NCBI GenBank assembly: GCA_018238155.1
Contig: JABCTZ010000039.1
Coordinates: 1-59,792, forward strand
Direction: 5' to 3'
DNA: 59,792 nucleotides
Origin: Candidatus Heimdallarchaeota archaeon
GTDB lineage: Archaea > Asgardarchaeota > Heimdallarchaeia > JABLTI01
Shown: positions 705 through 59,648 of the stretch, piece by piece
How positions within the stretch are numbered: position 1 is the stretch's first letter
Layout: the number at the start of each line of letters is the position of its first letter
The notes under the pieces: generated by a model
What the model was told of the DNA's origin: nothing
Databases searched by the model: none
The model's input: only the letters and a program-made list of their open reading frames with translations
Program-made: the position numbers and the translations under genes

Positions 705-1838
705 TCAACCAACAATACCATCACTATCAATACAATCAGAAACAAAATCAGTTAGATACATTGCTATTGCAGCCATTGTTACAATAATTCTAATTGCAGT
801 TGCAGCACCTGACGCGGTTATCGCATCTACAAAAGCTTCCGCACCAATAATTATTCCAGCAAGAACTAAATAGAGCAAAACAAGAGACCATTCTGCATCA
901 GTTGCATTAGCTAATGCACTTCCAAAACTCTCTGCGATTTCACCCGCAGCACTGCAGACATGCTCAAAAAATTCAGCCCCTGTCATATCACCATTTACAT
1001 AATAGGCAAATCCAATTAAAAAGTATGATATCGCATATTGATAGAATCCCACAGCTGTTTTCGTGACCAAGCTAAATTCTGCAGGAACAGCAGGAGCTCC
1101 GATTATTAAATTTAAAACTAAAACAATTAGCATTACTAAATGCCAAGATAGCTCAATGCCACTTAATTGGAAAAAAACATAACCTGTAGTAAACTGAGTA
1201 ACATAAAATGTTGATGGAAAATTAAATGATATAGAACTTCCACCACCACTTCCATCATCTAAATCAAATAATGGATTAAAATCAACATCACCCCTAATCA
1301 GGGAATTCTGATATGCCATTACTTTAGTTAGAACTAACTCAGATCTAGTAAGAATATACGCAGAAATTAAACCGCCTAGATTTGAATCAATTTTACCATA
1401 AAAGGTAAGTGCATCATTTTCTGTTAAATCGGTTTGTTGAATAATTTCATTAGAATGGCAGGATAGTATTATATCTTTTGAGCGAGATTTCTCAATTTCA
1501 TTTGAAAAATCATTCCATTTTATTAATTCTTTATTAATTGATATTCCTTTTATAGATCCATGACCGATCCAAATAATCGGTTGCAAGATTCTATTTGATA
1601 TTAAAAGAAATTTGAATGAATTATATTTTAGAATGCTAATTCCTTTTACATTTTCTTGTAGAACCCTACTTGCTGATTTAATAGAAGCATCTTCATCAAG
1701 TTGAACAACAATGGTTCCTGGAACACTTGTTGATAAAGCTTGGATAAAAATAACACTCGATATTAGGCTCGATATTATCAAAATTAAGGAGAATAACCTC
1801 ACATGTTTATATCTACTAGAAATCATTAAAGTCACCAC
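705..1838 (-). CDS. Secreted precursor: signal peptide, caspase-fold-like His/Cys domain, Gly linker, hydrophobic C-terminal domain (putative polymorphic toxin)
   Basis: N-terminal hydrophobic segment; IIWIGHGS...DIILSCHS; LDDGSGGGSS linker; Ala/Gly-rich hydrophobic helices; paralogous to 17657-18727 and 58473-59648. Confidence 0.65.
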   Translation of the reverse strand: MVTLMISSRYKHVRLFSLILIISSLISSVIFIQALSTSVPGTIVVQLDEDASIKSASRVLQENVKGISILKYNSFKFLLISNRILQPIIWIGHGSIKGISINKELIKWNDFSNEIEKSRSKDIILSCHSNEIIQQTDLTENDALTFYGKIDSNLGGLISAYILTRSELVLTKVMAYQNSLIRGDVDFNPLFDLDDGSGGGSSISFNFPSTFYVTQFTTGYVFFQLSGIELSWHLVMLIVLVLNLIIGAPAVPAEFSLVTKTAVGFYQYAISYFLIGFAYYVNGDMTGAEFFEHVCSAAGEIAESFGSALANATDAEWSLVLLYLVLAGIIIGAEAFVDAITASGAATAIRIIVTMAAIAMYLTDFVSDCIDSDGIVG

Positions 1839-1970
1839 TTTTTTCCCAATTAGCCCTTTTCATTAAAAGCTAATTAATATAAGAAAAGCAAATATGTATT
1901 AAAAGATTATGCACATAATATTAAATAGACATGCAGGAAGAATAGCATCATCAATGAGAGGGTTAAACTA

Positions 1971-2855
1971 TTGAAAAGATTAGACACTTATATTACATCT
2001 TATAGGAAAACGGGATTTGCTATTAAATCAGATCAGAAAAAAAAAGCATTGTTTATGAAAACGAGAATAAGACTTATGCCAATTTTCTTAATTGCTTTTC
2101 TAATTGTTGCGGGTTTTGGATTATTTAATATTTTTTTCACTCTACAAGTTATATTGAAATTTGTAATTGCATACTCTTCAGCATTGTCACTTTATTATAT
2201 TGTAATAATAGATTATAATACTGCAATGGATTGGCAAAGTTACTCTACAAGAAATGAAAGTATTAAAGGAAAAATTTTACATTCAATTAAAGAAGGTGTA
2301 ATTTTGTTCGGTATTTCTATGATAATTATCGGGATAATTTACTTAATTCGTTTACCTCAAAACTTAGAAACCTCATTATTAGAAAAAATAACTGGAGATG
2401 AAACACCTTTAAGTTATATGCCAAATACTATAGAGACAATTTTGCTTGCGGGAATAATTTTGTTAACGTTAATTTCAATAATAGCTTATATCAGATGGTT
2501 TTACCTAAGAGGTATAAAAATCACTGGTTATTTTAAAGATAAAGAAAGAATAAAAATTGATTTAAAACCATTAATCTATTGGGGGATAAATCAACTTGTG
2601 TGGTGTTTCATGCTCCCAATTTTAGATGTAATATTTATAGAAACAAGATATCCAGAGACATCTTCAAGATACGAATTTTTTAAGAACATTTTCGCTTCAA
2701 AACCATATATGCTCTTAATAATTCAACTTAGTATTATTCTGTTATTAACAGCTTTTTATTTTATTGATGGGTTTATTGTAAACAAAAGAAGAAAGAATTT
2801 TGTGGAACTTAACTTAATAGATATGGTCAACAATGAAGAAGAGTTTCTGCAATAA
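1971..2855 (+). CDS. Multi-pass membrane protein (candidate immunity partner); true start may be ~2055
   Basis: 294 aa ORF with about 6 hydrophobic segments, divergent from 705-1838 inside the cassette. Confidence 0.7.
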   Translation: MKRLDTYITSYRKTGFAIKSDQKKKALFMKTRIRLMPIFLIAFLIVAGFGLFNIFFTLQVILKFVIAYSSALSLYYIVIIDYNTAMDWQSYSTRNESIKGKILHSIKEGVILFGISMIIIGIIYLIRLPQNLETSLLEKITGDETPLSYMPNTIETILLAGIILLTLISIIAYIRWFYLRGIKITGYFKDKERIKIDLKPLIYWGINQLVWCFMLPILDVIFIETRYPETSSRYEFFKNIFASKPYMLLIIQLSIILLLTAFYFIDGFIVNKRRKNFVELNLIDMVNNEEEFLQ

Positions 2856-3019
2856 TAATTTACTCAATTGGAAAATAATGTTGGATAATCATATTTGATA
2901 AGATAAATTGGATTGAATACAGACTGTACAAAAAAACAGAAAAATAGTAATTGATTACCAATGAAAAAAGAGAACGAAAGAGAAGAAAGAGTTAAAGAAA
3001 CGGAAAAGAGAAAAGAAAC

Positions 3020-3050
3020 TGGTGGACCGGTTGGAATTTGAATCCACGGC
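3020..3050 (-). repeat. Copy of the tRNA-Ala(GGC) 3' 31 nt (att/target-site duplication)
   Basis: tggtggaccggttggaatttgaatccacggc matches 13275-13305 at 30/31 positions. Confidence 0.95.
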
Positions 3051-3107
3051 TTAATATCAAGTTTTAAAATAGAGCCACTCGCGAACAAAATTCTACTTAT
3101 GATTCAA

Positions 3108-57625: not shown

Positions 57626-57632
57626 TCTCTCC

Positions 57633-57833
57633 CTAATCTGCTGCTCCTAGAAATTTCTTTAAAGCAGATTCAAGATCAAAATCTCTTTTATCCACTTTCT
57701 TTAACAATTGCTCAATAGCTGTTATCTCTTCATCAGAGATTTTATTGTGTTCAGCTAATCGCTTGCTCTTGTTCGATTCTTTACAAATTTCTCTAAATCT
57801 TCGGGCTAAAAATGGTCCAATTTGTTGTGACAT
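57633..57833 (-). CDS. Small helical protein leading the Rad50-like operon
   Basis: 66 aa; 7-nt gap with GGAGAG RBS before the SMC gene. Confidence 0.6.
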   Translation of the reverse strand: MSQQIGPFLARRFREICKESNKSKRLAEHNKISDEEITAIEQLLKKVDKRDFDLESALKKFLGAAD

Positions 57834-58043
57834 TTATACACTCAACAACCTTCTCCAAGATGTAAGATTATGTTAAATCAACAATAACATTCACTTGCGC
57901 ATATTTATTGTTACTGTTGATGCAAATGCCTAGCAGGAATCCGTTTTAGCACAGAAAAACAATTCAATCATAAAAGAGTGATGAAAAAAGAAAAAGGAAT
58001 AGAAGAAAAAAAACGATTCATGGAAAAAAAATTCCTAAGAATC

Positions 58044-58460
58044 CTATCTAACAAAAGCTAGAACAAGAAGATATATCAAATAAACTATTTGACATAATAT
58101 TGAACCTATAAAAGAGAGCCATACAAAGATTCGAATGGTTTTAAATGGTTGTTGTGCAGGATTTTCTTTATCCAAAAAAACAGCTAATATATCATTTTTT
58201 GTTAGAGATTCTTTTTTTAATGCTTTAATTATAATTGTACTGCTATGTAAGAAAAACGTAAGAAGAAGAAAAGAGATTGGAAATAAAAATAATATAAGTG
58301 TGGTTCTAACAGTATTCGAATCTAAGGAACCAAAATCAATCAATAAACTGATAGTATTTGGAGTGATGAATAGCACCATAATAAGTAGCATATAAAAAAT
58401 GGAAGAATTGGCTTTTTGCTTCCCTTGAAGATTTTCTTTGTTCAAATTGTTATTTTGCAT
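58044..58460 (-). CDS. Three-TM membrane protein (candidate immunity protein)
   Basis: Co-oriented, 12 nt downstream of 58473-59648. Confidence 0.7.
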   Translation of the reverse strand: MQNNNLNKENLQGKQKANSSIFYMLLIMVLFITPNTISLLIDFGSLDSNTVRTTLILFLFPISFLLLTFFLHSSTIIIKALKKESLTKNDILAVFLDKENPAQQPFKTIRIFVWLSFIGSILCQIVYLIYLLVLAFVR

Positions 58461-58472
58461 GATTTCAAAACC

Positions 58473-59648
58473 TCAATAACTGCTTGCTTCTATAATAGCA
58501 ATGGTACCGATAATAAATGCTGCTATTAACAGTACCACTCCAATAGCCAACGCCCAGGGTCCTGCGATAGCTGCAAGAACTACAATAAGACCTGAAGCTT
58601 CAAGTGCAAATTTAATAAAAATTACACCCATTGGAATAATAATAGCTGCAATAGCTACAAGAAGAGCAGTATATTGAAATCGTATATCAATTAGATTAGG
58701 AGCAGCATCCGCTACAATTTTCAAGAATTGATCAAGAAGAATATCTCCTTTTGCTTTCTTTTGAAAATTATTATCTCTATAGACATTTCCAAAGTGTACA
58801 TAATCATTTGTATCACTTTTTGTAATTATCCACGCATCAAAAGTCACTAAATGTTCTGTTAAATAATAAGAGGATTGACTTGATGATGCTTTTTCCAAAA
58901 AATCTCCTTTGTATGTAAATTCAATCTTTTGCCATTTGTGACTCATCATATATGTATATAAACTTCTTTCACCTAAATCAGTTAGCAAATTCCAATAAAT
59001 GTGTTTACCAGCATACGTATAAGCTTGACGTACGTTGTTGAATAATGATGGCGGATTACTCAAACTCCACCCGTTTCCACTCCCACCTGGATCTAGAGCA
59101 TGAAGTTGAATATTCTTTATAGGATTAAGTTTGTAGCTTTCTGTCCAACTTAATAGATTAATCATATCTTGTATAGCAGTTGTAAGGTCGATTCTATCTG
59201 TATAGATTAATTGTAAATCATTTTCTAATTCAATATTGTTGGAATAGCAAGCAAGTAGAGCAACCACTTCTTTATTTTCAGTCATTTGAAGAATTCTATT
59301 TGCTGAATAATCAGCAATAAAATATTGACCTGTAGAATTGAAATATCCATGACCAATAATTATTAGCGAGTTATCAGACTCAAATAATAGTCCTGATGAA
59401 TAAACCAAAGTAGATATTTCAAAATTATTTATGGTTGCTTGTGTCTGAATATAGTCTGCAACCTCTATCATTGTCTCTACATCTAATTCATCAAAATCAA
59501 CAATAGGAGTGCTATTGTCTACTCCGTTCACATCTCTTTCCAAAGTATCTCTAGGCATTATTGAAACTATCGCATTTAAATTAGCAAAAACAGTGCCAAA
59601 TATGACCAGAAATATTAGTAATGTATTAATTATTGTAATTTTTTTCAT
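58473..59648 (-). CDS. Secreted precursor with caspase-fold-like His/Cys domain, LDPGGSG linker and hydrophobic C-terminal hairpin
   Basis: Signal peptide; LIIIGHGY...VALLACYS...YTDRID; ALDPGGSGNG; terminal Ala/Ile/Gly-rich helices. Confidence 0.65.
   Translation of the reverse strand: MKKITIINTLLIFLVIFGTVFANLNAIVSIMPRDTLERDVNGVDNSTPIVDFDELDVETMIEVADYIQTQATINNFEISTLVYSSGLLFESDNSLIIIGHGYFNSTGQYFIADYSANRILQMTENKEVVALLACYSNNIELENDLQLIYTDRIDLTTAIQDMINLLSWTESYKLNPIKNIQLHALDPGGSGNGWSLSNPPSLFNNVRQAYTYAGKHIYWNLLTDLGERSLYTYMMSHKWQKIEFTYKGDFLEKASSSQSSYYLTEHLVTFDAWIITKSDTNDYVHFGNVYRDNNFQKKAKGDILLDQFLKIVADAAPNLIDIRFQYTALLVAIAAIIIPMGVIFIKFALEASGLIVVLAAIAGPWALAIGVVLLIAAFIIGTIAIIEASSY

Follow-up and report, generated by a model that had tools for sequence, protein, structure and literature searches.

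The 59,792-nt contig JABCTZ010000039.1 (assembly GCA_018238155.1, Candidatus Heimdallarchaeota archaeon), analysed here over its full length and referred to as the window, encodes three members, A, B and C, of a family of predicted exported proteins in which a head with a conserved His/Cys pair is followed by a Gly-rich linker and a hydrophobic C-terminal tail. This family is small and occurs mostly in Asgard archaea. We consider that its members are best explained as accessory, fast-turnover conflict or recognition cassettes, a reading to which we assign a probability of about 0.5.

A first-pass annotation had described three open reading frames (ORFs) with a signal peptide, a His-Cys dyad, an I-D motif and a Gly linker, and had proposed them as self-cleaving pro-toxins. 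All three ORFs are open at the positions given below and carry each of these elements. The subfamily A gene (705..1838, minus strand) encodes 377 aa when read from the GTG at 1838 and 373 aa from the ATG at 1826, and it is the latter, not the GTG, at which the public gene call begins. Its product consists of a signal or anchor segment (residues 1-32), a head (1272-1730, minus strand; His89 at 1560-1562, Cys123 at 1458-1460, Asp147 at 1386-1388), a Gly linker including DLDDGSGGG (1212-1271, minus strand) and a membrane tail (708-1211, minus strand) that terminates with the conserved D-x-D-x-(I/V)VG. The subfamily B gene (17657..18727, plus strand, 356 aa) comprises a head (17774-18244, plus strand; His92 at 17930-17932, Cys128 at 18038-18040, Asp151), a poly-Gly linker of HTP followed by ten Gly (18245-18292, plus strand) and a tail with hydrophobic stretches (18293-18724, plus strand). 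In the subfamily C gene (58473..59648, minus strand, 391 aa) the signal or anchor segment (residues 1-28) and the head (59100-59489, minus strand; His100 at 59349-59351, Cys134 at 59247-59249, Asp154) are followed by the linker LDPGGSGNG (59064-59099, minus strand), a beta-rich middle domain (58713-59063, minus strand) and a long hydrophobic helical hairpin (58476-58712, minus strand). The three linkers thus agree with those initially reported. As read from the sequences, the N-termini of A, B and C show basic residues followed by a hydrophobic stretch, and an A-x-A-like site is present in those of subfamily A.

The motif hhh(G/A)HG followed by a hydrophobic strand and (S/A)C recurs in all three proteins with a His-to-Cys spacing of 34-36 residues. 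In pairwise BLASTP, A matched both B (E 4e-9) and C (E 0.002), whereas no similarity between B and C was detected. Profile-profile comparison of the heads connected all three pairs, A-B with an E-value of 2.3e-23 (probability 99.5), A-C with 3.6e-20 (99.3) and B-C with 4e-7 (92.7). Judged by these comparisons, the heads are homologous far beyond chance. The C-terminal regions, which had been called mutually unrelated, indeed represent three tail types without profile similarity to each other (probability <1%). They are not unique, however, since each is conserved over its full length inside its own subfamily. In the A family the acidic motif D-x-D-x-(I/V/A/L)VG is conserved at the extreme C-terminus (e.g. 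window 708-728, minus strand); membrane tails do not usually carry such a motif, and it may serve in docking or sorting.

The structure of the head was approached with a full-length AlphaFold2 model of A built from a 58-row alignment. This model reached a mean predicted local distance difference test (pLDDT) score of 85.9, with values above 94 in the head and below 50 in linker residues 192-200. In the model, strand 84-87 leads into His89 and strand 118-121 into Cys123, and the elements of the head follow each other as beta1-alpha1-beta2-alpha2-beta3-His ... alpha3-beta4-Cys, an order that we take to be the clan CD arrangement. The model of C (pLDDT 79.8, low in the linker) shows the same His/Cys layout. 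An exhaustive VIA structure search with the A head returned CHAT 8tl0 first (Z 10.1, root-mean-square deviation 3.9 over 144 residues). The Foldseek search that had been suggested as a check was run against the PDB, and its top matches were SAVED-CHAT 8tl0, legumain, PIGK (7wld_K, rank 9), Csx29 and the V. cholerae CPD (3eeb, E 3e-2), with E-values of about 1e-2 for the top entries. Furthermore, a search of the ESM atlas with the head returned Peptidase_C14, CHAT and C13 clusters, and the search with C yielded one CHAT cluster aligned to residues 54-168 and otherwise noise. The caspase-hemoglobinase fold postulated initially is therefore supported by the layout of the head model, by CHAT 8tl0 as top match and by the Foldseek and atlas results, and on the strength of these predicted structures the head probably has a clan CD fold.

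Sequence models gave much less. With A, B and C as queries, Pfam gave no match at E up to 10; over 58 members only two weak Peptidase_C25 matches appeared (E 0.008), and in the same 58 members the CHAT model PF12770 had no match at E up to 0.1, so that the family falls outside this model. Peptidase C13 (legumain/GPI8) and C80 (CPD) likewise had no Pfam match in the family. A UniRef label reading 'CHAT-containing' on one B-type member was not reproduced. The genome also encodes a separate canonical CHAT protein of 987 aa.

When the head profile was compared with 1.84 billion representative proteins, just 91 clusters were recovered at E up to 1e-3. Nearly all family members are 300-430 aa long and combine an N-terminal hydrophobic segment, the HG...C domain and 2-6 hydrophobic helices. 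Among the 112 members collected, the His is present in 110 of 110 and the Cys in 108 of 108 sequences covering the respective column. The I-D motif, described as conserved, is present in A, B and C, but its Asp is found in 93 of the 106 covering members and thus not in all. Named members come from metagenome-assembled genomes of Heimdallarchaeota or Promethearchaeota, plus one labelled Methanobacteriota. The proposed count of paralogues across Asgard genomes, once carried out, detected the head in 18 of 41 relatives and, across the phylum, in 69 of 301 genomes, most of the positive ones having 1-5 copies. The source genome has 12-13 heads, the highest number seen; genomes of the same genus have 0-3, and many of them have none detected. 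Full-text literature searches combining Asgard with CHAT or caspase-like found no paper on the family. A distant relative from public metagenomes, P0065 (1827 aa), matches the head profile in seven or more tandem stretches and repeats the motif LLLTGHGR, a multi-head architecture unlike that of other family members.

Within the source genome the three subfamilies differ in copy number. Besides the A gene of the window there are five further A copies (33-40% identity), of which three are full-length, one is cut by a contig end and one carries an in-frame TAG; C has five full-length paralogues (31-57% identity), and B is present as a single copy with public relatives that are 58-62% identical over the full length. 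Clustering of the tails gave 34 C-type, 23 A-type and 7 B-type sequences plus divergent singletons, and these classes follow the head subfamilies.

The A and C genes are tied to small membrane partners. In the window the A partner (1971..2855, plus strand), a 294-aa polytopic membrane protein, is divergent to the A gene, and in the other A cassettes the partner lies downstream of the A gene on the same strand, with the order partner-A-partner-A on contig C30 (contigs are denoted here by the letter C and a number). In an all-against-all comparison of neighbours, a homologue of this ~290-aa partner adjoined every A copy. Nine frames matching the A partner were found genome-wide, two of them being halves of one broken gene, which leaves 8 partner genes for 6 A genes. 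The A partner itself had no Pfam, NCBIfam or PADLOC match. C genes are followed by a partner of ~150 aa with ~3 hydrophobic helices, the frames often overlapping or nearly touching; in the window this partner (58044..58460, minus strand; 138 aa, ~3 hydrophobic helices) starts 12 nt after the C stop codon. A C partner was detectable by BLAST at 5 of the 6 C copies, at the sixth (C10) the ORF in the equivalent position was recognised with the partner profile, and the same pairing recurs in public contigs. The A and C partner types have no profile similarity to each other (probability <1%).

Moreover, partners occur in excess over heads. By profile, the genome contains 11-12 C partners for its 6 C genes. 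On contig C20 three partners follow the C gene one after another, and contigs C28, C7 and C29 carry orphan partners. In relatives the numbers of C partners versus C genes are 3 vs 1, 3 vs 1, 2 vs 1 and 1 vs 0. One module on contig C29 (77864-78732, minus strand) is headless: its 144-aa ORF resembles the C profile in the tail part only (probability 97.6, E 3.7e-12). This ORF immediately precedes an orphan 3-helix partner and neighbours a gene for an Lnt-like CN-hydrolase membrane protein. A small adjacent partner gene together with orphan modules, as expected of polymorphic toxins, is found for A and C and not for B.

The C cassettes evolve unevenly along their length. Between C paralogues, identity is 67% in the signal peptide and 55% in the head, drops to 26% in the middle domain and 21% in the tail, and lies at 16-33% between the partners; A paralogues are 59% identical in the head and 36% in the tail. 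At the DNA level, C copies are 90-100% identical upstream of the gene and in the signal peptide, and near random in the 3' part and the partner, with breakpoints that are specific to the pair compared (~+350 for C4-C45, ~+800 for C43-C4). Synonymous divergence between C4 and C45 is 0.05 in the signal peptide versus 0.9-1.3 further on. The unequal synonymous divergence, the identity gradient and the pair-specific breakpoints together point to recombination or gene conversion at the 5' end, and not only to differing constraint. The ratio of non-synonymous to synonymous substitution rates (dN/dS) is 0.16-0.27 for heads and 0.47-0.67 for tails.

Swapping of C-termini, as initially claimed, holds as a deep architectural pattern but not as a recent process. 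Identity between heads of different classes is only ~25%, the tails track the head subfamilies, and among the members collected there were no near-identical heads with different tail types. The heads are as diverged as the tails, and A, B and C are old paralogues. Two A copies are independently broken: the one on contig C20 (98068-99192, minus strand) has an in-frame stop next to an intact adjoining partner, and the second, in genome G005 (contig C54), combines an in-frame stop with a frameshift in the tail. Recoding of the in-frame TAG was considered and rejected because the stops lie at different conserved Trp positions and one of the copies is also frameshifted.

The tails are multi-helix hydrophobic segments with the look of integral membrane anchors. 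They had no Pfam, NCBIfam or PADLOC match and thus contain no known toxin domain, and the colicin pore-forming domain (PF01024) in particular had no Pfam match at E up to 10. Searches with the full-length C model were filled, in VIA, by generic helical hairpins on residues 317-391 and gave Foldseek entries of low probability; these searches were uninformative for the beta-rich middle domain of C. The language-model atlas returned nothing above noise for the tails of A and C or for the A partner. A colicin-family atlas cluster with a score of 0.79 lay below the level of shuffled proteins and was not used. Release of a membrane-active effector, as first proposed, is doubtful since such strongly hydrophobic tails are expected to insert into the producer's own membrane.

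The linker of C is shared with other exported proteins. A six-frame translation of the whole genome contains DPG(G/D)SGNG seven times, in five C linkers and at the N-termini of two proteins with a bacterial Ig domain. The latter are paralogous secreted proteins of 410-413 aa (contig C10, 62-1303; contig C4, 111246-112478) in which LDPGDSGNG directly follows the signal peptide. On both contigs the Ig-domain gene is followed by a gene for an LVIVD-repeat membrane protein and then by a C cassette, whose C gene, two genes downstream, is on the same strand. The occurrence in these two contexts fits a role of the linker as a recognised site, at which the protease may cut both its own protein and others. 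A search of 40 relatives with the strict DNA pattern of this motif found no match, and the link to the Ig-domain proteins was seen in one genome only.

Upstream of C, five copies of the 15-bp repeat CTTTACTAATCTTTT form a tandem array (59673..59747, minus strand) that ends 24 nt before the start codon. Arrays of 2-6 copies of CTTTACTAATCTTTT or close variants are also present on contigs C4, C10, C20, C21, C22, C26, C44 and C45, and they end exactly 24 nt before the ATG of C genes, of the two Ig-domain genes and of a gene for a 533-aa secreted protein. The copy number differs between loci, which suggests that the arrays serve these genes as a common promoter or leader element, possibly subject to control through copy number. 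Many contigs start or stop inside these arrays, and hence the arrays break the assembly.

The A cassette of the window sits between fragments of a tRNA gene. A 28-nt copy of the tRNA 3' end in reverse complement (128..155, listed on the plus strand) forms the left boundary of a 2.9-kb segment whose sole sizeable ORFs are the A gene and its partner. A direct repeat of this fragment (3020..3047, plus strand) forms the right boundary of the segment and at the same time the left boundary of an island of ~10 kb (3047-13275) encoding TPR, NERD, LAGLIDADG, PD-(D/E)XK and HTH proteins. The third copy (13275-13302) is the 3' end of an intact tRNA gene (13278-13382, minus strand) of 105 nt, which scores 49.5 bits with Rfam, was missed by ARAGORN and probably bears an intron. 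Three matches to the tRNA end in the window compare with 0 expected by chance. The tRNA ends delimit two tandem inserted segments, and no integrase was seen. The repeats flank only the A cassette of the window, not other copies. A contig of a close strain keeps the A cassette and carries, past the left edge of the window, DUF4258 and HEPN/nucleotidyltransferase genes. Similar clusters of tRNA fragments are present on contigs C11 and C36. The C cassette forms the right end of the contig, behind its five 15-bp repeats.

B is preceded by a gene (14993-17518, plus strand) for an 841-aa exported protein with BNR/Asp-box repeats and a match to sortilin/Vps10-like propellers, which ends 139 nt upstream of it. 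Also near B, two paralogous proteins of ~239 aa (18887-19606 and 20888-21604, minus strand) combine an N-terminal membrane helix with a C-terminal RING-H2-type zinc finger, and relatives of these are encoded on contigs C20 and C22.

Surplus and orphan partners, a headless module, mosaic 5' ends, pseudogenes, a patchy distribution and an island location typify effector-immunity or recognition systems as described for bacteria (PMC3482391), and on these we base the view that the family consists of conflict or recognition cassettes. In such a cassette the N-terminal signal or anchor would export the protein, so that the head of ~130-150 residues, a CHAT/legumain-like clan CD domain, would face outward. 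The Gly-rich linker, predicted to be disordered, would lead to the subfamily-specific hydrophobic tail, which would sit in the membrane. A and C would act as two-gene cassettes, each tied to its own small membrane partner (~290 aa for A, ~150 aa for C). The tail may serve as the specificity or effector part and the partner as its cognate, immunity-like binder, while the head would be a cysteine protease that acts at the Gly-linker motif or close to it, either on the protein it belongs to or on a co-exported substrate. More specifically, and only tentatively, we suggest a native Asgard effector-immunity or kin-recognition system in which an exported mini caspase/CHAT-like protease arms or sheds a hypervariable membrane tail. 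Each tail would then be matched by a small membrane immunity protein, and orphan immunity genes and headless tails would constitute an archive for diversification.

Several results weigh against this proposal. The placement of the family rests on predicted structure and weak profile evidence. In the VIA search generic alpha/beta folds (PurE, LacI-type, DJ-1) reached Z 7-8 and legumain 7.0-7.8, so that CHAT stands only ~2 Z units above generic folds. Alignment of the head by hhalign with four canonical Asgard CHAT domains was weak (E 0.0068, probability 5.6%); this same weak alignment puts the GHG of the family on the AGHG of CHAT and its LSC on SAC. No name for heads, tails or partners came from NCBIfam, from PADLOC or from searching PDB sequences with the head profile. 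B has no conserved partner, and its neighbours differ in a related contig. Co-variation of tail and partner over 15 paralogue pairs was not significant, with sequences near saturation. The tails are under net purifying selection (dN/dS <1), and the near-orthologues A and P0002, which are 96% identical, show no excess of changes in the tail. B and some A members lack a conserved Asp in the linker, and Pro directly after Asp makes an unusual cleavage site for caspase-type enzymes. Finally, the tails should insert during synthesis, which makes delivery to another cell hard to picture. A predicted complex of the C middle domain plus tail with the partner scored 0.23, compared with a mark of 0.32, and was counted neither for nor against binding.

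Other explanations account for parts of these data. The family could represent a housekeeping-type surface protease or transpeptidase, that is a tethered clan CD enzyme which trims, sheds or attaches surface proteins at a Gly-rich site, the tail being merely an anchor, the partner a regulator or scaffold, and the variability a consequence of exposure to viruses. Legumain and PIGK among the top fold matches, the resemblance of the tails to stable membrane anchors, and neighbours encoding LVIVD and Ig-domain surface proteins are in line with this, as is the position of B directly after the BNR/sortilin-like secreted protein; moreover, LDPGDSGNG after the signal peptide of the array-sharing Ig-domain proteins is how a substrate in trans would be expected to look. 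A housekeeping enzyme, however, is expected to be single-copy and widely kept, whereas here 13 copies contrast with many relatives of the same genus in which none was detected. Nor does this explanation account for orphan partners, the headless module or pseudogenes, and the exact linker motif was not found in 40 relatives, so that we regard it as rather unlikely. The non-protease alternative, in which the head is a generic three-layer alpha/beta ligand-binding domain (flavodoxin, PurE or periplasmic-binding-protein-like) whose His and Cys bind a metal or cofactor, draws on the PurE, LacI-type and DJ-1 folds at Z 7-8 and on the lack of any peptidase Pfam model above threshold. It is made highly improbable by the CHAT match, which is ~2 Z units higher and spans the whole head, by the two members with weak Peptidase_C25 matches, and by the position of His and Cys at the C-terminal ends of adjacent strands, with clan CD spacing and aligned to the CHAT motifs.

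The remaining two explanations keep the protease and assign the tail an attacking or suicidal role. A classical polymorphic toxin, in which a conserved head is recombined onto unrelated toxin tails, releases them by self-cleavage for killing of neighbours and is neutralised by an adjacent immunity protein, would be in keeping with the established bacterial layout of a caspase-like releasing peptidase directly upstream of a C-terminal toxin domain (PMC3482391), and with three unrelated tails on one head family, small downstream membrane genes, orphan copies and mosaic breakpoints. Such systems are reported to be rare in archaea (PMC3482391), and the family shows no dedicated secretion or delivery domain beyond the signal peptide. 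The ~25% identity between heads and the tracking of subfamilies by tails speak against any recent swap between tail types, and none of the tails, integral-membrane in character, matches a known toxin domain. The polymorphic toxin proposal of the first-pass annotation hence retains the partners, orphans, headless module and mosaicism of A and C, but lacks toxin domains and recent swaps, and in its classical form we consider it improbable. Even less probable is an antiviral surface defence or suicide switch, loosely like protease-activated pore formers, in which the protease would sense an extracellular or envelope event and cut the linker, the tail would disturb the cell's own membrane and the partner would act as brake. 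The closest solved relatives of the head, SAVED-CHAT 8tl0 and Csx29, are defence proteases, one cassette shares its island with nucleases and toxin-antitoxin-type genes, and the family is patchy, multi-copy and fast-evolving. Known defence CHAT proteases, however, are cytoplasmic and coupled to sensors, no sensor domain is seen in the family, and PADLOC gave no match; the orphan partners, too, are more readily understood as protecting against toxins from outside than as private brakes.

Knowledge of competition and recognition between Asgard archaea is scarce, and the family is the most expanded of its kind in the source genome, with 12-13 heads and ~20 partner genes. It carries a previously unrecognised, half-size relative of caspases and CHAT proteases, which would be displayed on the cell surface and which, if active, would be a new clan CD enzyme of small size for which a candidate recognition motif is at hand. 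If the tentative native effector-immunity or kin-recognition system exists, the archaeal lineage nearest to eukaryotes would employ a caspase-type protease in conflicts between cells. If the proteins instead process surface proteins, they would still represent a new membrane-tethered protease with a defined candidate substrate.

Several known systems resemble the cassettes in part. Pore-forming colicins and bacteriocins share with C the C-terminal hydrophobic hairpin, the tightly linked gene for a protein with ~3 helices and the orphan copies; the family differs from them in having no receptor or translocation domains, and in the C model the helices are not buried in a soluble bundle. Legumain and PIGK (C13) are extracytoplasmic, membrane-associated clan CD enzymes and recurrent fold matches of the head, but sequence matches are lacking and generic alpha/beta folds score just as well; unlike these conserved single-copy genes, the family is multi-copy and patchy. 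Polymorphic toxins, MARTX and large clostridial toxins with a CPD (C80; 3eeb) likewise place a clan CD domain upstream of a variable module, with a small downstream gene and orphan modules. In contrast to the internal CPD of these giant proteins, the head of the family is the first domain after the signal peptide, repeats and delivery domains are absent, and the tails are membrane segments without known toxin fold; the CPD structural match is weak (E 3e-2), and the family is mostly confined to Asgard archaea. CHAT proteases (PF12770) differ in being cytoplasmic and fused to sensor domains (SAVED, TPR), whereas the family is predicted to be exported and has a membrane tail, and its head of ~140 residues is about half the size of the 289 Pfam positions of CHAT. 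They nevertheless provide, with SAVED-CHAT 8tl0 and Csx29 of the Cas7-11 complex (8eey), the best structural match over the whole head, in which the His lies in hhhGHG after a strand and the Cys in an hhSxC-like motif after the next strand, in the register of the Asgard CHAT domains.

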